Shown: positions 1,976-12,131, counted from the first letter of the stretch. The stretch is DNA of 25,709 nt from Terriglobales bacterium (GCA_035561375.1 DATMXT010000237.1:1-25709), one strand, 5' to 3'. Made by a program: numbers and translations. Notes: generated from the sequence alone by a model not told the origin.

Positions 1976-2860
1976 TTGAACGAGTTTTTTAACAGCTATA
2001 TTCTGAACTTCCCGTCGGCCTGGCAGTTTCGGCCCTCCGACGCCCTCGACAACGCGGTCAAAGCCTTTTCCCGCGATCACCAGACCTCGCTGAAGGCCAT
2101 CAAGCAGGTCGTGATTGCGGGAATCGGCGGCATCCGCCGGCTGCTTCTTGCCACGCCCTGGATTGTGCTGGTGCTGATTGTCGTCGTCCTGGCCTGGCGG
2201 CTGACCAAAAAGCCTCTGGTCAGCCTGCTCTACGGCGGGATGCTCATCTTTATCGGCAGCTGCGGCTTTTGGGGCCACATGATCGAGAGCCTGAGCCTTG
2301 TCATCGTCAGCGTCATCCTGTGCATCCTGCTCGGGTTTCCGCTGGGGGTGCTGCTGGCCATGAGCAGCCGGGCCAATAAGCTCCTGCGCCCGGTGCTCGA
2401 CACCATGCAGACCATGCCCTCCTGGGTCTATCTCGTGCCGGCCGTCATTTTGTTTTTCACCGGCCTCACGCCGGCGCTGCTCGCCACCATGATCTACGCC
2501 ATCGTGCCGATGGTGCGGCTGACAAGCCACGGGCTCCTATACGTCGACGCCGAAATGATTGAGGCGGCGAGGGCCTTTGGCTCGACCAAGCTGCAGACGC
2601 TGGTCAAGGTGCAGATACCGCAGGCCATGCCGACCATCATGGCCGGCGTCAACCAGACCATCATGATGGCCATGTCGATGGTGGTCACCTGCGCCCTCAT
2701 CGGCGCAAACGGCCTTGGCATGGAGATTCTGCTCGCCGTCAACCGCGTCGAGATGAGCAAGGCGCTCTTCCCCGGCATCTGCATCGTCATTGTGGCCGTC
2801 ATCCTCGATCGGCTGACCCAGGCGCTGGTCAAAAAAAGCGAGGTGGGACAGGATGGATGA
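1976..2860 (+). CDS. Glycine betaine/proline ABC transporter permease (ProW/OpuAB)
   Basis: TTG start with AAGGAG RBS. Hydrophobic. LDTMQTMPSWVYLVP and EAARAFG (EAA loop) motifs. Confidence 0.92.
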   Translation: MNEFFNSYILNFPSAWQFRPSDALDNAVKAFSRDHQTSLKAIKQVVIAGIGGIRRLLLATPWIVLVLIVVVLAWRLTKKPLVSLLYGGMLIFIGSCGFWGHMIESLSLVIVSVILCILLGFPLGVLLAMSSRANKLLRPVLDTMQTMPSWVYLVPAVILFFTGLTPALLATMIYAIVPMVRLTSHGLLYVDAEMIEAARAFGSTKLQTLVKVQIPQAMPTIMAGVNQTIMMAMSMVVTCALIGANGLGMEILLAVNRVEMSKALFPGICIVIVAVILDRLTQALVKKSEVGQDG

Positions 2861-4085
2861 GGCAAAACACACGCTGCCCGCGGCCGAAAACCCGGCCGCG
2901 CCCGAGAGCGCCGTCAGTTACACGCTTGAGGCCGAGCACGTGACCAAAATTTTTGGGCACAATAAGGCCGCAGCCGCCCGCATGATGGAGGCCGGGGCCG
3001 CCAAAGACGAGGTCCACGCCAAAACCGGGGCCGCGGTCGCCCTGTGGGATGTATCTTTTCAGGTGAAAAAAGGCGAAATCTTTGTTATAATAGGTCTGTC
3101 GGGCTCCGGCAAGTCGACCATCATCCGCTGCTTCAACCAGCTCATTGCGCCGACTTCGGGCCACGTGAGATACGAGGGCGCCGACATCGGCGGCATGGAC
3201 AAGCGGCAGCTCACGGATTTGCGCCGCAACAAGGTCGCCATGGTGTTTCAGCACTTCGGCCTTTTCACCCACCGCACCGTCATGGAGAACGTCGCCTACG
3301 GACTTGAGGTGCGCGGCATGTCAAAGGCGCAGCGGGAGGCAAAGGCGATGGAGCTCATTGAGATGGTGGGCCTCAAGGGGTGGGAAGCCATGCCCATCTC
3401 CAACCTGTCGGGCGGAATGAAACAGCGGGTGGGCATCGCAAGAGCTTTGACAAACGACCCCGAGGTGCTGCTGATGGACGAGCCCTTTTCGGCCCTCGAC
3501 CCCTTGGTGCGCCGGGACATGCAGTTTGAGCTGCTGTCCATTCAGCGCAAGCTGAACAAGACCATCCTCTTCATCACCCACGACATCAACGAGGCCTTTA
3601 AGCTCGGGGACACCGTGGCCATCATGAAGGACGGAAAGGTCATTCAGATCGACACGCCCGACCGCATGTCGATGGCGCCGGCCGACGACTATGTGCGGCA
3701 GTTCATTGAGAGCGCCGACAAGTCGCAGGTGCTCAAAGTCCGGCACATCATGGTCACCCCGTCCTGCATGGTCAAAGAAAAGGACGACCCCGCCCACGCC
3801 ATACGGGAAATGCATCAAAACGGCGTCTCCAGCGCCTTTGTGGTCGACGCGAAAATGCGGCTGCAGGGTGTGCTGCACCTCAATGAGGCGCTGCGGGCCC
3901 TCAGTGAGAAAATCCCCATCGCGCCGCTGATTGAGCGGGACCCCGTGACGGCAGACCCCGACGCCGGCGTCGGCGACATCATGCCGCTGGCTGTGCGCAC
4001 CAAGTACCCCATCGCCGTCGTAGACGAGGGCGGCGTCCTCTTGGGCATCGTCAGCCGCGCGGCGGTCATCGCGTCCCTCATCTGA
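2853..4085 (+). CDS. Glycine betaine/proline ABC ATPase with tandem CBS domains (ProV/OpuAA)
   Basis: Walker A GLSGSGKS, signature LSGGMKQRVG, LLMDEPFSALDPL, H-loop ITHD, C-terminal CBS pair. Overlaps the permease stop. Confidence 0.95.
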   Translation: MDEAKHTLPAAENPAAPESAVSYTLEAEHVTKIFGHNKAAAARMMEAGAAKDEVHAKTGAAVALWDVSFQVKKGEIFVIIGLSGSGKSTIIRCFNQLIAPTSGHVRYEGADIGGMDKRQLTDLRRNKVAMVFQHFGLFTHRTVMENVAYGLEVRGMSKAQREAKAMELIEMVGLKGWEAMPISNLSGGMKQRVGIARALTNDPEVLLMDEPFSALDPLVRRDMQFELLSIQRKLNKTILFITHDINEAFKLGDTVAIMKDGKVIQIDTPDRMSMAPADDYVRQFIESADKSQVLKVRHIMVTPSCMVKEKDDPAHAIREMHQNGVSSAFVVDAKMRLQGVLHLNEALRALSEKIPIAPLIERDPVTADPDAGVGDIMPLAVRTKYPIAVVDEGGVLLGIVSRAAVIASLI

Positions 4086-4163: not shown

Positions 4164-4805
4164 ATGGGAGAGTATGCCAAATTCGCGCCCGCGCGCTATC
4201 AGCAGGTGGCGGTGGACATCGCCTCGAAAATTGCGGACGGGCAGTACCAGGTGGGCGACAAGCTCTACGCCCGTTCGCAGGTGGCAAGCCAGTACTGCGT
4301 CTCCCCTGAGACGGCCAGGCGCGCCATCGCCATTCTCTCGGACATGGGCATTGTTGAGACGGCCAAGGGCAGCGGCGTGCTCGTGCGCTCCTATGAAAAG
4401 GCGCTGGCCTTTGTCCGGCACAGCCGCGACACCAACACCCTGTCGGAGCTCAGACAGTCGGCCGTCCGGCAGTCCGAACAGCTGGCCGGGGAGGTTGCGA
4501 AGCTGCGGGAGACCGTCGCCGACCTTGTCGACCACACCGACCAGTTCCACTTCACAAATCCGTTTGTCCCCTTCAAAGCCCCGATTGAGCCGCAGTCCAC
4601 CTGCATCGGGCTGAGCCTCTCGGAGCTGAACTTCTGGCACAACACGGCGGCCACCGTGGTAGCGGTGCGCCGGGGCGAGCGGCTGCTGCTCTCCCCGGGC
4701 CCCTACGAGGCGCTCAAGGCGGGCGACGTGCTCTATTATATCGGCGACGAGGGCTGCGCAGAGCGGGTCAAGCACTTCCTGCGCAACTTCTCGCCGCAAG
4801 GGTAA
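4164..4805 (+). CDS. busR: GntR wHTH + RCK_C/TrkA-C regulator (BusR-like)
   Basis: N-terminal RYQQVAVDIA...VSPETARRAIAIL. C-terminal LSLSELNFWHNTAATVVAVRRG..LLSPGP RCK_C domain. Lies after an opuA/busA operon. Confidence 0.85.
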   Translation: MGEYAKFAPARYQQVAVDIASKIADGQYQVGDKLYARSQVASQYCVSPETARRAIAILSDMGIVETAKGSGVLVRSYEKALAFVRHSRDTNTLSELRQSAVRQSEQLAGEVAKLRETVADLVDHTDQFHFTNPFVPFKAPIEPQSTCIGLSLSELNFWHNTAATVVAVRRGERLLLSPGPYEALKAGDVLYYIGDEGCAERVKHFLRNFSPQG

Positions 4806-4822
4806 GGTAAATATGGACGCTC

Positions 4823-4864
4823 AAAAAGCCCCTTGCTAAACAAATGTTTAGCAAGGGGCTTTTC
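4823..4864. terminator. Bidirectional intrinsic terminator
   Basis: aaaaagccccttgctaaac...gtttagcaaggggctttt between convergent busR and MFS genes. Confidence 0.92.
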
Positions 4865-4874
4865 ATGTGTTTGA

Positions 4875-6095
4875 TTATACCGTTTTCAAATCTGTTCTGC
4901 CCTTCTTTTCCCGCAAGGACGAGATCAGGGCCGCGGCCACAAGGCTGCTTGCGGCCCCGGCGAGGAAGGGCATGCGGGCCCCGCCCAGTCCCGACAGCGC
5001 CGACACGGCCACCGGGGCGAGCAGCGCCGAGACCACGGTGGACAGCAGCACGCAGCCGTAGTTGCCGCCGGCGTATTTGAGCCCGAAGAGGGCGCTTGTG
5101 AGGGTCGGATAGGTGGCGAGATACCCGCCGTAGCAAAAGGCTGTCGCAAAGCAGAGCAGCGGCACAAGCCAGCCGTTTGCCAGATAGAGCAGCACCATGG
5201 CGCAAAGGGTGGCGCCCTGAGACGCGAGAATGACCGGCCGCAGGCCGAATTTGTCGGAAGTCCAGCTCCCGACCAGCCTGCCGCAGGCGTTTGCAAGTCC
5301 GCAGAACATGACCGTGAGGGTGGCGGCGCGCACGGACAGGCCGCGCTCGACCACGAGGCTCTTGACCTGGGGCGACAGCATGAGGTAGGCCAAAACCGAG
5401 GCCAGCATGCCGAGGGAGAGCGGCCAAAACGAGCGGCAGCGCAGCATTTCGCGCGTCGTCAGGTCCCCCCCGCCCTCTTTGACGGGGGGCGGCGTGTACC
5501 CGGCCGGCAGATAGCCCGCAGGCGGGCGGTCGAAGCCGGCGGAGGCGACGAGCAAAATGGCGATGTAGGCGGCGCCCACCGCGAGGAAGGCCCCTTTGGC
5601 GCCCGCCCGGCCCAGCCAATACTCGGCATAGGGGCTGAAGACCAGCCCCGCGGCGCCCGCGCAGCCGACGACGCAGCCCATTGCGAACCCCCGCCGGTCG
5701 GGAAACCACATCTGAACCGACGGCAGCACGCAGTTGTAGGCGGCGCCGGAGCCCAGCGACATGACGGCGAAGACGAGGTAGAGAGGGATGGGGCCCATGC
5801 CGACCGCCACCGAGCAGAGCAGCATGCCCACTCCCAAAACGCCCGCCCCCATGACCCGCAGGACGGCCTTGGGGCCCGTCTTGTCGGCCAGGCGGCCGCC
5901 GATGAGGCCGCCGAAGGGGAACATGATCATGACAATGGAAAAGGGCAGCGAGGCCGCCTGCGGGGACCAGCCCATCGTCTCCACGAGGTAGAACTGGAAA
6001 ATGCTCCAAAAGTAGGGGGTCCCGAGCGACAGCATGGCCAGCATCCCGCAAATCAGCACGACCGCGCGATTTGCGGGACGTTTTATCTCCTCCAT
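4875..6095 (-). CDS. MFS transporter, oxalate/formate antiporter (OFA)-like
   Basis: About 12 hydrophobic segments. GRLADKTG and WTSDKFG loop motifs, WFPDRRGFAMG. ATG 6095 with GAGGTG RBS. Confidence 0.85.
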   Translation of the reverse strand: MEEIKRPANRAVVLICGMLAMLSLGTPYFWSIFQFYLVETMGWSPQAASLPFSIVMIMFPFGGLIGGRLADKTGPKAVLRVMGAGVLGVGMLLCSVAVGMGPIPLYLVFAVMSLGSGAAYNCVLPSVQMWFPDRRGFAMGCVVGCAGAAGLVFSPYAEYWLGRAGAKGAFLAVGAAYIAILLVASAGFDRPPAGYLPAGYTPPPVKEGGGDLTTREMLRCRSFWPLSLGMLASVLAYLMLSPQVKSLVVERGLSVRAATLTVMFCGLANACGRLVGSWTSDKFGLRPVILASQGATLCAMVLLYLANGWLVPLLCFATAFCYGGYLATYPTLTSALFGLKYAGGNYGCVLLSTVVSALLAPVAVSALSGLGGARMPFLAGAASSLVAAALISSLREKKGRTDLKTV

Positions 6096-6122
6096 AAACA
6101 CCTCTGAATGTCTTTTGTTATT

Positions 6123-7298
6123 TTATGCGCCCGCGGTGTAGTCCATCGCGTACTGCGCGTAGAGGCAGACCGAATAGAGTATTCCGTCCTCGTCAATCAT
6201 AAAGTTGCCGGCGTGGTGCGGCTTGTCGGCAAGTTTGGCGGGGTTGCCGACGCCGACAAAGGCCAGAAGCGAATCCGGGACCGCGTCCATCATATAGCAG
6301 AAGTCCTCGCCGCCCATCTGCATTTCGAAGGTGCCGATGGACTCCTCGCCAAAGCACTTGGTGAGGGCGCCGGCAGCCACACGGCTCGCGTGTTCAGGGT
6401 TGATGCAGGGGGTTGTGATCATGCGGTAGTCAATCCAGTCGGCCGTGCAGCGGTAGGCCGACGCGGTGTCCTTGATGATGCGCTCCATGATGCCCTTGAG
6501 CTTATCCTGGGTCTCGCGGCTGAAGGTGCGCACCGTGCCGTCCAGCACCGCTTCGCTTGCCAGCACGTTCCAGCGGGTGCCGGCGACGATTTTGCCGACC
6601 GTGACGGTCGTGGGCAGCATGGGCGAGAGCTCGCGGCTGATGATGGACTGCAAGTTGAGCAAAATGGAAGCCGTTGCCACGCCGGCGTCGACACCCTCGT
6701 TGGGCATTGCGCCGTGGCCGCCCTTGCCGGTGACCTTGAACTGGAAAATGCCCGCCGCAGCCATGCGGGGGCCGGCCTCAATCGAGACTTTGCCGAGCGG
6801 CAGCCCCGACCAGACGTGAATGCCTAAGACACTGTCGACGCCCTCAAGGCAGCCCTCTTTGAGCATGGCCTTGGCGCCGTCGGCCGTCTCTTCGGCCGGC
6901 TGGAAGAGCAGGCGCACTTCGCCCGAGAGCTCATCCCTCAGCTCGTTTAAAATTTTACCGGCGCCTAAGAGCCCCGCGGCGTGCGCGTCGTGTCCGCAGG
7001 CGTGCATGATGCCCTCGACCTTGGACTTGTAGGGGATGTCGTTGACCTCCTTGACGGTCAGGGCGTCGATGTCGCCCCGCAGCGCCACGGTCTTGCCCGG
7101 CTTTGCGCCTTTGATGGTGCCGACCACGCCGGTGCCCGCAACCACCTTGTAGGGAATTCCCATCTTTTCGAGCTCTTCGCAGATGCGCTTACTGGTGCGC
7201 TCCTCCTTTAAGCTGGGCTCGGGGTTCTCGTGGAACTCCCTGCGCATCGTCACGACGTAATCGTGATACTTTTCCGCCAGTTCTCTGACCTTTGTCAT
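6123..7298 (-). CDS. M20D-family amidohydrolase
   Basis: RREFHENPE, ALRGDIDAL, MHACGHDAH, FQPAEE, GKGGHGA, GGEDF, PHH. ATG 7298 with AAAGGCGG RBS. Confidence 0.93.
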   Translation of the reverse strand: MTKVRELAEKYHDYVVTMRREFHENPEPSLKEERTSKRICEELEKMGIPYKVVAGTGVVGTIKGAKPGKTVALRGDIDALTVKEVNDIPYKSKVEGIMHACGHDAHAAGLLGAGKILNELRDELSGEVRLLFQPAEETADGAKAMLKEGCLEGVDSVLGIHVWSGLPLGKVSIEAGPRMAAAGIFQFKVTGKGGHGAMPNEGVDAGVATASILLNLQSIISRELSPMLPTTVTVGKIVAGTRWNVLASEAVLDGTVRTFSRETQDKLKGIMERIIKDTASAYRCTADWIDYRMITTPCINPEHASRVAAGALTKCFGEESIGTFEMQMGGEDFCYMMDAVPDSLLAFVGVGNPAKLADKPHHAGNFMIDEDGILYSVCLYAQYAMDYTAGA

Positions 7299-7312
7299 GT
7301 TTTTACCGCCTT

Positions 7313-8236
7313 TCACCATTCTATTTGATTTGGTTCGTATAATCTCCTGTGCTTGAGCAGCGGCTTTTCAAGCCGGGCCGCAAAAGCCCTTACGCAGTCC
7401 TTGACCGGTTTTTTCATGTTGTCGTTGTAGACGACGGCGTCGATGCCGCCGTCAACGGTCTCCACCGCATGAAAGAGCTTTTCAAGTCCCGCCTCTTCCT
7501 CGTAGCCGCCGTTCACAAGCCAGATCGTGGGCAGGTAGTGCCCGACCGAAATGCCGGACGCGGCGTCCCTCAGGGAAGCTGAATAGGTCTCGTCGAAGTG
7601 AATGCCGCCGAGGGCCAAAATGGTCTTTGGCCGCGCCCCGGGCGCAAACACCTCTGTGAGTGCCCGTGCGATCGCCTCCTGGGCGACCGGATTTTCGAGC
7701 GTATCCTGCTCGGAGCCGATCTCGATGTCGAGCATGGGCACCGGATACTCTTCCAGCAGGGCCGTGTCGCTGCCGTGGATGGCCCCCGACCAGTGGGTGG
7801 CCTCGGTGTAGGCCGTGAAATCTTCGAGGCCGAGGGTTACCCGCCACTTTTCAAGCGCGACGGCGAGATTTTTCGTATAGAGGGGGTTTGACGGGGCGAA
7901 TTTGCCGGTGAGGACGTCCCCGATTGTGTGGACGGTCAGCACCTTGTCGGGCGCGTTTGCGCCGCCGTGCCAGTTGACATAGCCCGCGACGTCATAGTCC
8001 GCAAAATGGCCGTTCATCATAGGCAGGTATTTATCGTACCGGTGGCTGAGATAATAATCGCAGGAGACAAAGTCGAACCGGTCGCCGGCGCCGTCCACCC
8101 AGAAACAGGCCGGCATGCCGTCGACGACAAGTCCGCTCTCCTGTAAGGGCAAAAGGCTTTTCACCTTTTCTAAGACGCCTGTGGCGCAGGCGTCAAGCTC
8201 TTTTTTGGGGCAAAAGAAGTATACGGCCTTTTTCAT
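7313..8236 (-). CDS. dtdA: D-aminoacyl-tRNA deacylase of the archaeal/plant DtdA (DTD2/GEK1) family
   Basis: Family motifs in the correct order: VNWHGG, VLTVHTIGD, EATHWSG (cf. EATHHGP), DIEIGSE, LGGIHF, GHYLP. ATGA overlap with the racemase. Confidence 0.75.
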   Translation of the reverse strand: MKKAVYFFCPKKELDACATGVLEKVKSLLPLQESGLVVDGMPACFWVDGAGDRFDFVSCDYYLSHRYDKYLPMMNGHFADYDVAGYVNWHGGANAPDKVLTVHTIGDVLTGKFAPSNPLYTKNLAVALEKWRVTLGLEDFTAYTEATHWSGAIHGSDTALLEEYPVPMLDIEIGSEQDTLENPVAQEAIARALTEVFAPGARPKTILALGGIHFDETYSASLRDAASGISVGHYLPTIWLVNGGYEEEAGLEKLFHAVETVDGGIDAVVYNDNMKKPVKDCVRAFAARLEKPLLKHRRLYEPNQIEW

Positions 8237-8931
8237 GCCTTCACCTCATAGCCTGCGTAGAGCAGCGCGGCCCGCGCAAGCTCCAGCGAGGTGTCGATGA
8301 CGTCGGTGGCGACCCCCATGTCGGCAAAGGCCACGGGAATTTCGGTGCAGCCTAAGACAAAGCACTCGGCTCCCATGTTGCGCAGAATTTGAAGCTTGGC
8401 GAGTAAGCCCTCTCTGTCGTAATTCGTGTTGCCGGCTTTGACCTGATAGGCCAGGTGATAGAAAAACTCCTGACCGGCCGCGTCCGGCATGACAAGCTCG
8501 ACCCCGCCCTTTTCAAAGGCCTTCTGATAGATGCCGCTGCGATAGGTCCCGGCTGTGGCTAAAAGCGCCGCCCGGCGCTTTCCCTGCCGCTTGACGGCCG
8601 CGACCGCCTCGTCTAAAATGCTGAGCACCGGCACCGGGGAGACGGCGGCAATCTCCTCATAGTAGTAGTGGGCCGTGTTGCAGGGAATTGCGATGACCCC
8701 GGCTCCGCAGGCCGCAAGCCCCTTCACGCCGGCACAGAGCATCGGGAGGGGCGAGGGGCCACGGCCCAAAATGGCGGCCGTGCGGTCGGGAATCGCGGGG
8801 TTGTTGTCAATGAGGACACGGGGGTGGCCCGCGTCGCACTCGGCTTTTGTCAGCAGTACGAGCTTTTTAAAGAAGTCGGCGGTGGCCAGAGGGCCCATGC
8901 CACCCAGCACGCCGATTGTTTTTTTCTCCAT
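8233..8931 (-). CDS. PLP-independent amino-acid racemase (Asp/Glu racemase, RacX/YgeA-like)
   Basis: GVLGGMGPLAT, NPAIPDRT, and both catalytic Cys motifs (IPCNTAH, LGCTEIP). Confidence 0.92.
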   Translation of the reverse strand: MEKKTIGVLGGMGPLATADFFKKLVLLTKAECDAGHPRVLIDNNPAIPDRTAAILGRGPSPLPMLCAGVKGLAACGAGVIAIPCNTAHYYYEEIAAVSPVPVLSILDEAVAAVKRQGKRRAALLATAGTYRSGIYQKAFEKGGVELVMPDAAGQEFFYHLAYQVKAGNTNYDREGLLAKLQILRNMGAECFVLGCTEIPVAFADMGVATDVIDTSLELARAALLYAGYEVKA

Positions 8932-8949
8932 GTGGGTATTCTCTCCTTA

Positions 8950-9220
8950 GCCTGACCGATATAATACAAACCCGTTTTGCAGAGCACGGGCCGCCCCGGA
9001 GACACGCTTGCGCCCCTTGAAGGGCGTCAGCCCATCTGTGGGCCGCTGTCTCGCTCCGAACCGGCCGGTGCCCTGCAAAATCTTCGACCTACGCGGGAGC
9101 GGATTTTTGTGTCAGGCGAAATTGAATGACGCCGGCGGGCTGACGCCCGCCAAAGAAAGAAATGAAGTCTGGCGCGAAAAGCAGCCCCACGTAGGCGGGT
9201 CCGGATTATATTGGTCAGGC
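8950..9220. mobile_element. 271-bp MITE with terminal inverted repeats and a TA target duplication, copy B
   Basis: gcctgaccgatataat (8950-8965) vs attatattggtcaggc (9205-9220): 15/16 inverted match. TA at 8948-8949 and 9221-9222. No credible ORF. Confidence 0.8.
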
Positions 9221-10257
9221 TAAAGCAGGTCGGCCAGTGAGCGCTGTACCCGGCCGGTGTAGCCCGTCGTCGTCCTGGCGTGTAAAAGGGAGGAGTAGAC
9301 CGACTCCTGCACCGCCTCGATGACGGCCCGGAACATGAGCTCCATCGCGTCCTCGGCCAGCTGCGGGGCGGGGGGCAGGATGTCCTTATCCTCGAAGTGG
9401 GGAATGGTGCGGGCCGTGGAAAAGCCTACGGCGATGTCGCCCGAGCCGTTTCCGGTGATGGTGCCGGTGCGGGCAAGCCCGCTCTGGGCCCTGCGGCACA
9501 TGCGTTTTAGCTGCCGGTCCGAGACCGGCGCGTCGGTGGCGAGGACGATGATGACCGAGCCCTTGTCCCGCTCGTTTAAACCGGCGAGCTTCTTGGCCAG
9601 CTCCCGCCCGATGTTGCCCGCAGCCGACGTGAAGTCCTTTGTCGAGCCGAAGTTGGTGACCAGCAGGGCGCCTACGGTGTAATCCTTGCCGTCGAGCCTC
9701 ACGACGCGGGAGGCCGAGCCCACGCCGCCCTTCATGTCGTAGCAGCACATGCCGGTTCCGGCGCCGACGGCCCCCTCCTCAAACTCCGGGCCGGCGGCGG
9801 CGATGGCCTCCGCCACATGCTCCTCTTTGACGTGCAGCGCCCGGATTTCGTTTAAGCTGCCGTCGTTGCACTCCATGACGACGCCGTTGACGGTGCCGGT
9901 CGTGGCGCCGATTTCGGGGTTCCCGGCCAGCATGTACCGGACGAGCCCCGTCAGGCAGGTGCCGACCGACAGGGTGTTCGTGATGACGAGGGGCGCTTCA
10001 ATGGTGCCGAGCTCCTCAACCTGAACAAGGCCGGCCGACTTGCCAAATCCGTTGATGACATGGCAGGCCGCCGGCACCTTATCGCGAAAGAGATTTCCGC
10101 CGTGGGGCAGGATGGCCGTCACGCCGGTGCGGGCGGTCCCTTCGGTCAGCGTGACCTGGCCGACCGCGACACCCTCTACGTCGGTGATGAGGTTTCGCCG
10201 CCCTCTCGGCAGCCCGGACATGTCGAACTGCGGGTATTTCTTTGCGTCGATACCCAT
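9220..10257 (-). CDS. DmpA/P1-family (S58) aminopeptidase
   Basis: ITDVEGVAVG, GVTAILP, NTLSVG, GAVGAGTG, KGGVGSAS, and the self-cleavage site G|SVIIVLATDAP. Confidence 0.9.
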   Translation of the reverse strand: MGIDAKKYPQFDMSGLPRGRRNLITDVEGVAVGQVTLTEGTARTGVTAILPHGGNLFRDKVPAACHVINGFGKSAGLVQVEELGTIEAPLVITNTLSVGTCLTGLVRYMLAGNPEIGATTGTVNGVVMECNDGSLNEIRALHVKEEHVAEAIAAAGPEFEEGAVGAGTGMCCYDMKGGVGSASRVVRLDGKDYTVGALLVTNFGSTKDFTSAAGNIGRELAKKLAGLNERDKGSVIIVLATDAPVSDRQLKRMCRRAQSGLARTGTITGNGSGDIAVGFSTARTIPHFEDKDILPPAPQLAEDAMELMFRAVIEAVQESVYSSLLHARTTTGYTGRVQRSLADLL

Positions 10258-10291: not shown

Positions 10292-10320
10292 ATTGTATCA
10301 CAGGGTGTGCTGTGTTACAA
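10292..10320 (-). promoter_or_regulatory. sigmaA promoter of the dmpA-racemase-dtdA operon
   Basis: Minus strand TTGTAA, 17 bp, TG-a-TACAAT, about 35 bp upstream of ATG 10257. RBS GAGGGG. Confidence 0.7.
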
Positions 10321-10436: not shown

Positions 10437-12131
10437 ATGAATCACAATTTTGAGGACAACGACTACGTCAACATCGACGACACAGGCGAGGCAAAGGCGA
10501 AAAAAGCGCCCCGCCGCGGCGGAGAAGCGAAGGCGCTCATCGTCACGCTCCTGGTGGCGCTGGGGCTGTTCTACATTCAGCTGCCGGCCATCAACCTCAA
10601 GTCGGAGAGCTTCTACTCCTATATCTGCATCGTGCTCATCGTCTACACCATAGCCCGCCTTCCCACCGTCCTGCGCAAGACCGATTTCGACTTCCGCAAT
10701 GTCGGCCGGCGCAACTTAAAGCCGCTTGTCACGGTCTTCTATCCCGCCGTCGTCATGCTCGTGCTCGTGGGGCTTTGCCTGATAGGCGCCCTGCTGTCCT
10801 CCCCCATCATAAGGGCGGGCGCCTACCGGGAGCTCATTACGGTCGAGCCCGGCTCCTTCACCGAGGACGTCGCCGCCGTCACTTTCGACCAGGTGCCGAT
10901 GCTCGACAAGGCCTCGGCGCAAGTCCTCGGCAACCGCAAGCTCGGCGAGCTGTCCGACCTCGTCTCCCAGTTCGAGGTGGCCGGCAACTACAACCAGATC
11001 AACTACAAGTCCCGGCCGGTGCGGGTGACCCCGCTTGAGTACGGCGACTTCTACAAGTGGATCGGCAACCGCGCGCAGGGCCTGCCGGCCTATATCATCG
11101 TCGACATGCTGTCACAGGAGGTCACGGTGCAGCGTTTGCAGGCCGGCATGAAGTACTCGATGTCGGAGCCCTTCTTCCGCAACACCTACCGGGTGCTGCG
11201 CTTTCGCTATCCGACCTATATGTTCTCAAATCCGGTCTTTGAAATCGACGACGCCGGCACCCCCTACTGGATCTGCCCCCGGGTGACCAACACCATCGGG
11301 CTCTTCGGGGGGCGGGACGCCATCGGCGCCGTGCTCATGAACGCGCAGACCGGCGAGATGCAGTATTTGGCGATCGGGGACATTCCGCAGTGGGTCGACG
11401 CCGTCTACAACGCCGACCTCATCATTGAGCAGTACGACTACTACGGCCGCTACCGCAACGGATTTTGGAACTCCATCTTCGGCCAGAAGGACATGACCAT
11501 GACGACGGCCGGCTACAACTACCTCGCCTTAAACGACGACGTCTACGTCTACACCGGCATCACCTCGGTCGGCGGCGACGAGTCCAACATCGGCTTCATT
11601 TTGACCAACCAGCGCACAAAGGCCACGAAATTTTATTCCATTCCGGGCGCTGAGGAGTATTCGGCCATGAGCTCGGCCGAGGGCGTCGTGCAGCACCTCG
11701 CGTACAACGCCACTTTCCCGCTGCTGCTCAACGTCTACAATCAGCCGACCTATTTCATGGCGCTCAAGGACAACGCAAATCTTGTCAAGATGTACGCGAT
11801 GGTCAACGTCAGCAGCTACCAGATCGTCGCGACCGGCACCTCCATTGCCGAGTGCCAGCGGGCCTATATCCAACTCATCCAAAATAACGGCATCATTGAG
11901 CCGGGCGAGTCCGAAGGGACGGTTTCCGGGGTCATTGAGGAAATCCGCACCGCGGTCATCGACGGCAACTCCATCTACTATATCAAGCTGGCGGGCGAAG
12001 AGGGTTACTTCTCAATTTCGGCCATCGCCGACAGCACCGTCGTGGTGCTCTCGGTCGGCGACGAGGTCGAGATCGGCTACTCCCTGCGGCAGGAAGGCAT
12101 CACGCCGGCGCTCGGGGTCAGGCTGAAATAG
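10437..12131 (+). CDS. Conserved membrane-anchored protein of unknown function (3 N-terminal TM segments, large soluble domain)
   Basis: ATG 10437 with GGAGGAG RBS. 564-aa ORF with host-like codon usage. No catalytic motif recognised. Confidence 0.8.
   Translation: MNHNFEDNDYVNIDDTGEAKAKKAPRRGGEAKALIVTLLVALGLFYIQLPAINLKSESFYSYICIVLIVYTIARLPTVLRKTDFDFRNVGRRNLKPLVTVFYPAVVMLVLVGLCLIGALLSSPIIRAGAYRELITVEPGSFTEDVAAVTFDQVPMLDKASAQVLGNRKLGELSDLVSQFEVAGNYNQINYKSRPVRVTPLEYGDFYKWIGNRAQGLPAYIIVDMLSQEVTVQRLQAGMKYSMSEPFFRNTYRVLRFRYPTYMFSNPVFEIDDAGTPYWICPRVTNTIGLFGGRDAIGAVLMNAQTGEMQYLAIGDIPQWVDAVYNADLIIEQYDYYGRYRNGFWNSIFGQKDMTMTTAGYNYLALNDDVYVYTGITSVGGDESNIGFILTNQRTKATKFYSIPGAEEYSAMSSAEGVVQHLAYNATFPLLLNVYNQPTYFMALKDNANLVKMYAMVNVSSYQIVATGTSIAECQRAYIQLIQNNGIIEPGESEGTVSGVIEEIRTAVIDGNSIYYIKLAGEEGYFSISAIADSTVVVLSVGDEVEIGYSLRQEGITPALGVRLK

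Follow-up and report, generated by a model that had tools for sequence, protein, structure and literature searches.

The DTD2 literature describes DTD2 as confined to archaea and plants, indeed as one of only two proteins that are unique to both. The enzyme carries two firmly bound, essential zinc ions and tolerates D- and N-alkyl-aminoacyl groups, and deacylase activity has been measured for DTD2 of P. horikoshii and of A. fulgidus. Here we report on a bacterial DTD2-like protein (Pfam PF04414, also UPF0204) that is encoded in a cluster of five consecutive, co-oriented minus-strand open reading frames (ORFs), as called on a stretch of 25,709 nucleotides (DATMXT010000237.1:1-25709, assembly GCA_035561375.1, filed as Terriglobales bacterium), the whole of which is hereafter termed the window. 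The window genome is an Oscillospiraceae metagenome-assembled genome (MAG) of 1.83 Mb that is 96% complete, and the sequencing runs listed as containing the window stretch are all DNA runs, from soil and freshwater sediment. The four partner genes encode an S58/DmpA-family aminopeptidase, a racemase that is independent of pyridoxal phosphate (PLP), an M20 amidohydrolase and an MFS transporter (Table 1). A sequence-only reading of the window had proposed a D-amino-acid operon at this place; the five co-oriented genes and their domains are confirmed by the ORFs and by Pfam matches, all five proteins scoring above the gathering score of their respective families. The same reading knew of no description of this combination, and none was found in the literature searched, which offered nothing relevant on a bacterial PF04414/UPF0204 member, on a C. 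difficile DTD2 homologue or on an operon of DmpA with an aspartate racemase. In databases, such bacterial proteins already go by the name 'D-aminoacyl-tRNA deacylase'.

As judged from profile searches and a predicted model, the DTD2-like protein of the window is homologous in structure to characterised archaeal DTD2 over its full length, and the 'DTD2-type' domain call of the sequence-only reading thus stands. Its PF04414 match, for which the gathering cut-off is 33.6 bits, runs over residues 79-290 and spans model positions 3-201 of 205. When the sequence was searched singly against the PDB with phmmer, there were no matches; a family profile built from 50 PF04414 members and searched against the same database matched P. 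horikoshii PH0006 (2gfq, E 1.7e-26) and A. fulgidus AF0625 (1yqe, E 7.7e-24) over near-full length (residues 10-303). The AlphaFold2 (AF2) model has a predicted local distance difference test (pLDDT) value of 97.4, and in Foldseek it matches 2gfq and 1yqe with E 2e-20 and template modelling (TM) scores of 0.75-0.82 at 17-18% identity, the next matches (MTAN, PNP and Pth, i.e. peptidyl-tRNA hydrolase) having TM scores of at most 0.52. Against equivalence with DTD2, the NCBIfam DTD2 equivalog model NF003072 is not reached (38.6 bits versus a cut-off of 272).

The two-domain fold is shared over its full length with archaeal and plant DTD2 (PH0006, AF0625 and Arabidopsis GEK1), as are the motif positions RH, HxxG, E-x-T-H, E-I-G-S, GG-x-H and H-x-L-P, which fits the report of two tightly bound zinc ions in DTD2. 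Residues H90, H103, E145, H148, E172, H213 and H233 align with His/Glu residues of PH0006 and AF0625; among the 50 family sequences H90, E145, H148, D170 and E172 are invariant, and H103, H213 and H233 are at least 90% conserved. Since the His/Glu positions are kept as in the zinc-dependent archaeal enzymes, a metal-dependent hydrolase is expected. The archaeal EATHH motif reads EATHW in the bacterial protein, with Trp replacing the second His, the presumed zinc ligands being assigned by alignment alone. The invariant residues W89 and D170 are specific to the bacterial family, and the bacterial protein has two short insertions relative to the archaeal proteins. The clade to which the window belongs is set apart from other bacterial members by WHGG for WHEG, HYLPTIW for HILPNQW and NDNMKKP for HDxLKG. 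The bacterial protein is also unlike DTD2 in its host, in the presence of DTD1 alongside it, and in the location of its gene within hydrolase/racemase operons or lyase fusions. A coherent bacterial family with the same fold and motif residues shows that the picture of DTD2 as found only in archaea and land plants is incomplete. Isoelectric point and net charge were tried as a proxy for tRNA binding and dropped as uninformative, bacterial and archaeal-like members being equally acidic.

The spacing within the cluster argues for one transcript covering at least four genes. The racemase stop codon and the DTD2-like start codon overlap as ATGA, 14 nt separate the DTD2-like gene from the likely M20 start (ribosome-binding site GAAAGGCGG), and 27 nt separate the M20 gene from the likely MFS start (ribosome-binding site AGAGGTG). 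Directly past the MFS stop codon lies a terminator-like hairpin that is followed by T-runs on both strands, in agreement with the single terminator of the sequence-only reading. The 'one clear promoter' which that reading placed upstream of the S58 gene stands in part: a consensus match is present in the divergent spacer of 180 nt that separates the S58 gene from the gene of a CvpA-family membrane protein, but a 7.5-kb scan contained 2 sigma-70-like sites against 1.5 expected from shuffling. Thus, we regard it as a plausible candidate site, being a consensus match at the right place that carries no statistical signal. A 456-aa racemase::DTD2-like fusion on an ENA contig (P0015) was considered as Rosetta-stone evidence and rejected; its joint lies exactly at the ATGA overlap, and at either end, ahead of racemase residue 59 and beyond DTD2-like residue 216, it no longer follows the window proteins, so that it is most likely an assembly indel artefact.

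Table 1. Coordinates of features in the window and of recurrent neighbours or repeat copies elsewhere (L numbers denote loci, C numbers contigs)
Feature	Location	Strand	Details
Sigma-70-like promoter match (candidate)	10292..10320	-	TTGTAA-17-TACAAT, TG-extended; 9/12 matches
S58/DmpA-family Ntn aminopeptidase, PH0078 type	9220..10257	-	345 aa; Pfam PF03576 376.6 bits
MITE-like insertion	8945..9218	.	274 bp; precisely between S58 stop codon and racemase ribosome-binding site
PLP-independent Asp/Glu-type racemase	8233..8931	-	232 aa; Pfam PF01177 (Asp_Glu_race) 136.7 bits
Bacterial DTD2-like (PF04414/UPF0204) putative two-zinc hydrolase	7313..8236	-	307 aa; Pfam tRNA_deacylase 80.9 bits
M20 amidohydrolase (TIGR01891 subfamily)	6123..7298	-	likely start ATG 7298; alternative ATG 7319
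MFS transporter, oxalate/formate-antiporter / monocarboxylate type	4875..6095	-	likely start ATG 6095; alternative GTG 6101
Bidirectional intrinsic-terminator-like hairpin	4824..4863	.	18-bp stem; shared with convergent GntR-family gene
CvpA-family membrane protein	10437-12131	+	564 aa; no Pfam match; ESM Atlas 'CvpA family' clusters
Other copies of the repeat, own genome	C292:3301-3571, C302:1593-1861, C143:3915-4071		loci L099-L101
MarR-HTH::GNAT loci	L050:2012-2938, L032, L039, L052, L057, L035, L089
B3_4 loci	L036:7183-7893, L027, L028, L037, L040, L063; L032, L047, L058, L070		first six adjacent; last four nearby
Diaminopropionate ammonia-lyase loci	L025:6633-7946, L044:6730-7959, L029, L030, L047, L064
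SbnA-type cassette loci	L048:4159-10791, L068:4117-9834, L075, L079, L059

The remaining junction, from the S58 to the racemase gene, spans 288 nt and went unmentioned in the sequence-only reading, whose tight junctions are the other three. The gap is occupied by a 274-bp repeat with terminal inverted repeats of ~24 nt, of which the window genome has 4 copies at 79-100% identity, and which we read as a miniature inverted-repeat transposable element (MITE). Neither the two loci of the same genus that carry the cluster (L011 and L012) nor that of another genus (L013) has the insertion, and the S58-racemase gap there is ~15-25 nt. A long and very stable hairpin is predicted for the RNA of the repeat (-142.9 kcal/mol, z -7.7), and two terminator-like hairpins lie within it on the operon (minus) strand. 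An Rfam scan of the whole window, with a riboswitch or T-box sought in the 288-nt gap, found nothing near any gathering score. The terminator-like hairpins of the MITE make it uncertain that the DmpA-family gene is co-transcribed with the other four in the window genome, where it may be partly uncoupled from them. The evidence for an operon is thus that of four tightly spaced genes, with an order kept in L011, L012 and L013, set against a MITE-filled gap after the first gene.

Conservation of the five-gene cluster is limited. Our genome-wide collection comprised 263 loci with a PF04414 relative, the best 80 of which were examined; naive ORF calls missed the DTD2-like gene in 13 of these 80, all at high GC, and context counts were therefore taken from tblastn rather than from ORF clusters. 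A PF04414 gene is present in 10 of 41 related genomes, all of one family. In tblastn searches with the five proteins of the window, the full cluster was seen in four genomes, from two genera of uncultured Oscillospiraceae: the window genome and L011 and L012 of the same genus (85-98% protein identity), with L013 representing the other (57-72%); the L011 contig stops short of the MFS position. Of the cluster, three further loci (L015, L016 and L019) retain just the DTD2-like gene and, after a spacer of ~60-220 nt, M20 (58-59% identity), and no other locus among the 80 has a window-type M20 or MFS gene within 8 kb by tblastn. Within 8 kb of the PF04414 gene, a racemase is found in 4, DmpA in 5 and M20 in 6 of the 80 loci. 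A maximum-likelihood tree unites the loci with full or partial clusters in a single clade on a long stem (support 98/94), within which the four complete clusters form a subclade. Of the 9 clade loci, 8 have the CvpA-family gene as their divergent neighbour, whichever other genes are present, and this looks like inherited synteny. Conservation of the neighbourhood had been set beforehand as a test of the operon proposal, and it is lacking among bacterial PF04414 loci, which makes the set a narrow, recent assemblage rather than a general feature of bacterial PF04414 genes. L011 (DATMZG010000058.1) is titled Candidatus Acidoferrum sp. (Acidobacteriota); its proteins are 95-98% identical to those of the window, with which it groups in the tree, and this soil MAG has probably been mislabelled or mis-binned.

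The partner proteins are assigned with differing precision. Like DmpA, BapA and PH0078, the S58 protein has a full-length Pfam S58 domain and the nucleophile motif, its self-processing motif GNGSGD aligning with NGSGD in PH0078 and NNSGD in DmpA; we take the Ser of this motif to be the nucleophile, as in DmpA. Against the PDB it scores 348.6 bits with PH0078 (2drh), 183.4 with O. anthropi DmpA (1b65) and 155.4 with BapA, and as it is much closer to the uncharacterised archaeal PH0078, the D-Ala/beta-peptide specificity of DmpA and BapA is not transferable to it. The M20 protein has the Pfam Peptidase_M20 and M20_dimer domains (the latter at 41.9 bits) and passes the subfamily model TIGR01891 (337.1 bits versus a cut-off of 153.75), to which B. 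subtilis YxeP, Arabidopsis ILL2 and Sulfolobus CpsA also belong, but it is below every equivalog cut-off (CpsA, 351 versus 500; DoeB2, 300 versus 550); its nearest PDB entries are ILL2 (1xmb) and YxeP (1ysj), at ~262 bits each. For the MFS protein, the general MFS_1 model is the only one matched above its cut-off (132.2 bits), with SfMCT (257.2 versus 320) and TIGR00890 (157.5 versus 374.85) below cut-off; by these scores it resembles monocarboxylate and oxalate/formate carriers.

The racemase passes the model TIGR00035 (195.2 bits, cut-off 93.1) and scores 201 bits against P. horikoshii aspartate racemase (1jfl), both of whose catalytic Cys motifs (PCNTAH and GCTE) it keeps; with these cysteines and the GNGSGD motif in place, the racemase and DmpA domain calls of the sequence-only reading hold up. 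In family and length it agrees with 1jfl and with Bilophila wadsworthia CuyB. CuyB is a PF01177 racemase, and the known cysteate cluster is CuyA-CuyB-SDF-RidA (PMC11193023), a context different from the S58, DTD2-like and M20 genes of the window. No enzyme of the CuyA/D-cysteine-desulfhydrase type was found among the best 4 of the 6 PF00291 hits in the 96%-complete genome, these being two of threonine/serine dehydratase and two of cysteine synthase type, and we have therefore not filed the racemase as CuyB. The nearest racemase homologues outside the clade (48-64% identity) lie beside TupA-type ATP-grasp ligases and glycosyltransferases, or beside peptidoglycan-peptide genes; thus, this racemase type would appear to serve both the supply and the recycling of D-amino acids. 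Three proteins (P0326, P0331 and P0337) are 389-aa GNAT::PF01177 racemase fusions, 47-48% identical to the window racemase.

The wider bacterial DTD2-like family is small and patchy, a set of 1.84 billion representative proteins containing 117 of its clusters (50% identity), which, together with its presence in 10 of 41 relatives, suits accessory metabolism. Hosts include anaerobes that ferment amino acids (Oscillospiraceae, Peptostreptococcaceae with C. difficile among them, and Tissierellaceae) and Synergistota, as well as the Acidobacteriota with the cassettes described below. The immediate neighbours are heterogeneous in 35 non-redundant loci, MarR (5 of 63 genes) and GNAT (4 of 63) leading; a MarR-type helix-turn-helix (HTH) domain fused to a GNAT acetyltransferase (MarR-HTH::GNAT) occurs in seven loci of three phyla, adjacent in six and ~1.4 kb upstream in L089. 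A stand-alone B3_4 protein of 236 aa, homologous to the editing domain of the PheRS beta-subunit, is encoded by the divergent neighbour in six Synergistota loci, and its gene lies nearby in another four. B3_4 and DTD2-like genes side by side bring together two uncharacterised relatives of aminoacyl-tRNA editing enzymes.

Other contexts involve diaminopropionate. In Intestinibacter the DTD2-like gene directly follows, on the same strand, a gene for diaminopropionate ammonia-lyase (TIGR03528, 577 bits, above cut-off), and in Wukongibacter (L064) the corresponding gene lies ~6 kb upstream. In Acidobacteriota, Planctomycetota and Rhodothermota, the DTD2-like gene is preceded by a cassette for an SbnA-like PLP enzyme, an ATP-grasp ligase and an argininosuccinate-lyase-like protein, with a formyltransferase-like gene nearby and, once (L048), a threonyl-tRNA synthetase (ThrRS) gene after the DTD2-like gene; a ThrRS gene is also near the DTD2-like gene in L017. 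From its gene content this looks like a diaminopropionate-type natural-product or antimetabolite cassette. Its DTD2-like proteins belong to the same bacterial family and have the same invariant residues as that of the window, but they are of another clade, and the cassettes are biosynthetic-looking, with none of the window's four partner genes. Fusions of argininosuccinate-lyase-like and DTD2-like proteins occur in three separate 50%-identity clusters (P0143, P0149 and P0158; ~800 aa). The lyase fusions and the two independent diaminopropionate links point to small-molecule amino-acid substrates, whereas with B3_4 and ThrRS among the neighbours a role linked to tRNA stays in contention.

The D- or unusual-amino-acid theme of the sequence-only reading gains partial support from distant Synergistota clades, in which S58 and PF01177 racemase genes recur by DTD2-like genes. 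An S58 gene, together with genes for a NadB-like flavoprotein and an alpha/beta-hydrolase, is divergently adjacent in two Synergistales loci (L021 and L067), and another PF01177 racemase is encoded two genes downstream of the DTD2-like gene in L050. By a rough estimate the second, independent S58 adjacency is unlikely to have arisen by chance; the recurrence of the racemase is not significant.

Taken together, our tentative preference is to read the cluster as an accessory salvage operon for unusual amino-acid conjugates, i.e. short peptides, amides or esters with D-, beta- or N-substituted residues. The S58 aminopeptidase would remove unusual N-terminal residues, and the M20 amidohydrolase would cleave N-acyl-L-amino acids or C-terminal residues, while the DTD2-fold two-zinc hydrolase would cleave a small aminoacyl ester or amide beyond the reach of both, its substrate probably being D-configured or N-substituted by analogy with what DTD2 accepts. 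The aspartate-type racemase would interconvert the D- and L-forms of the amino acid so released, an acidic or small polar one, and the oxalate/formate-type MFS protein would move the anionic substrate or an organic-acid product. Gene order, domains, catalytic motifs, the DTD2 fold, the restricted conservation and the presence of DTD1 alongside are observed; the substrates, the direction of flux and the action of the DTD2-like enzyme on small molecules rather than tRNA are what we infer in this scheme. In its favour, the ATGA overlap with the racemase gene and the 14 nt to M20 point to translational coupling within the hydrolase set, the whole cluster recurs in L011, L012 and L013 and its DTD2-like/M20 part in L015, L016 and L019, and across the family the gene contexts are those of small-molecule amino-acid metabolism. 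Several observations weigh against it. Many members of the family stand alone, flanked by unrelated genes, and the DTD2-like to M20 pairing is not always tight, the spacer being ~60-380 nt in L013, L015, L016 and L019. The cell-envelope biosynthetic contexts of the racemase homologues favour D-amino-acid supply over catabolism. The fold and motif residues of the DTD2-like protein are those of a proven tRNA deacylase, and the tRNA-flavoured contexts (B3_4 in ten loci, ThrRS in L048 and L017, and the formyltransferase-like gene) point the same way.

The last two points lead to the proposal, already made in the sequence-only reading, that the deacylase protects translation: the PF04414 protein would be a genuine deacylase of D-aminoacyl-tRNA (or of tRNA charged with N-alkyl or non-proteinogenic residues), guarding against a raised pool of odd amino acids. 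What speaks for it, besides the tRNA-related neighbours, is the full-length fold shared with the biochemically active PH0006 and AF0625, the alignment of all seven His/Glu residues with the archaeal motifs, and the recurrence of the gene by enzymes of unusual amino acids, namely the racemase in L050, S58 in L021 and L067, diaminopropionate ammonia-lyase and SbnA-like diaminopropionate synthesis. However, the window genome has a canonical DTD1 (PF02580, 175 bits), and among the 41 relatives DTD1 is present in all 10 with the DTD2-like gene, while in the 8 that gave no DTD1 hit the DTD2-like gene is missing too; as DTD1 always accompanies it, with no complementary pattern, the protein is not a replacement chiral proofreader, although it is a possible specialised second deacylase. 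The low score with the DTD2 equivalog model, EATHW, the bacterial-specific W89 and D170 and the two insertions also tell against the proposal, the argininosuccinate-lyase-like fusions are hard to square with a tRNA substrate, and the catabolic partners imply a bulk flux that tRNA editing does not produce. Protection of translation by this protein seems to us unlikely, if still a serious contender.

It is rather improbable that the five genes are merely juxtaposed, as neighbours by shared ancestry with no common pathway. Here the older unit would be the DTD2-like and M20 genes beside the CvpA-family gene, with S58, racemase and MFS as recent additions. The confinement of the full set to one four-genome subclade fits such a history, as do the retention of the CvpA-family gene irrespective of cluster content (plain synteny), the MITE inside the cluster and the heterogeneous neighbourhoods of the family. 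The overlap and the 14- and 27-nt spacers with their ribosome-binding sites nevertheless favour a shared transcript for at least four genes, the cluster is kept in another genus (L013) despite considerable protein divergence, and S58 and racemase genes join DTD2-like genes independently elsewhere.

An anabolic or export role, in which D-Asp or D-Glu from the racemase would go into an envelope polymer or some secreted product, the MFS protein would export and the hydrolases would trim precursors, is more improbable again. The ATP-grasp ligases and glycosyltransferases beside the nearest non-clade racemase homologues (50-64% identity), and the existence of GNAT::racemase fusions, are in line with it, but there is no ligase or glycosyltransferase gene in or beside the window cluster, and hydrolases make up three of its five genes. 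Handling of cysteate or related sulfonates, with the racemase as CuyB, is very improbable, given that the CuyB equivalog score (233.1 bits, above the cut-off of 190) is nearly equalled by those for the generic Asp-racemase model and the P. horikoshii aspartate racemase, that no CuyA-type enzyme is among the classified PF00291 hits, and that the window is without a sulfonate-related gene.

It is conceivable, though doubtful, that bacteria possess an unrecognised DTD2 branch with one of two recruited roles. It would be a new kind of two-zinc hydrolase for small aminoacyl compounds that are D-configured or N-substituted, diaminopropionate-type antimetabolites among them, or else a tRNA deacylase coupled to metabolism and induced along with those pathways whose activity swamps the cell with D- or non-proteinogenic amino acids. 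Such coupling would then have one example in the Oscillospiraceae operon. The two outcomes to be told apart are a second activity of the DTD2 fold, on small molecules, and a second bacterial proofreader that is inducible and linked to the metabolism of D- and other odd amino acids. The five-gene operon alone, with its narrow distribution and common enzyme families, is of moderate interest; the bacterial DTD2-like family and its contexts are of more.

Further neighbours in the clade loci L015-L018 were subjected to extra Pfam scans, which were uninformative. In the window, the plus-strand genes on the far side of the terminator encode an ABC ATPase with CBS domains (osmoprotectant-uptake type, 2853-4085) and then a regulator with GntR-HTH and TrkA_C domains (4164-4805). 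The latter gene converges on the cluster terminator, is not kept beside the cluster in L012 or L013, and belongs to the neighbouring plus-strand unit. On the other side, the ORF of the CvpA-family protein is listed from TTG 10293, but ATG 10437, with the ribosome-binding site GGAGG, is its likely start.

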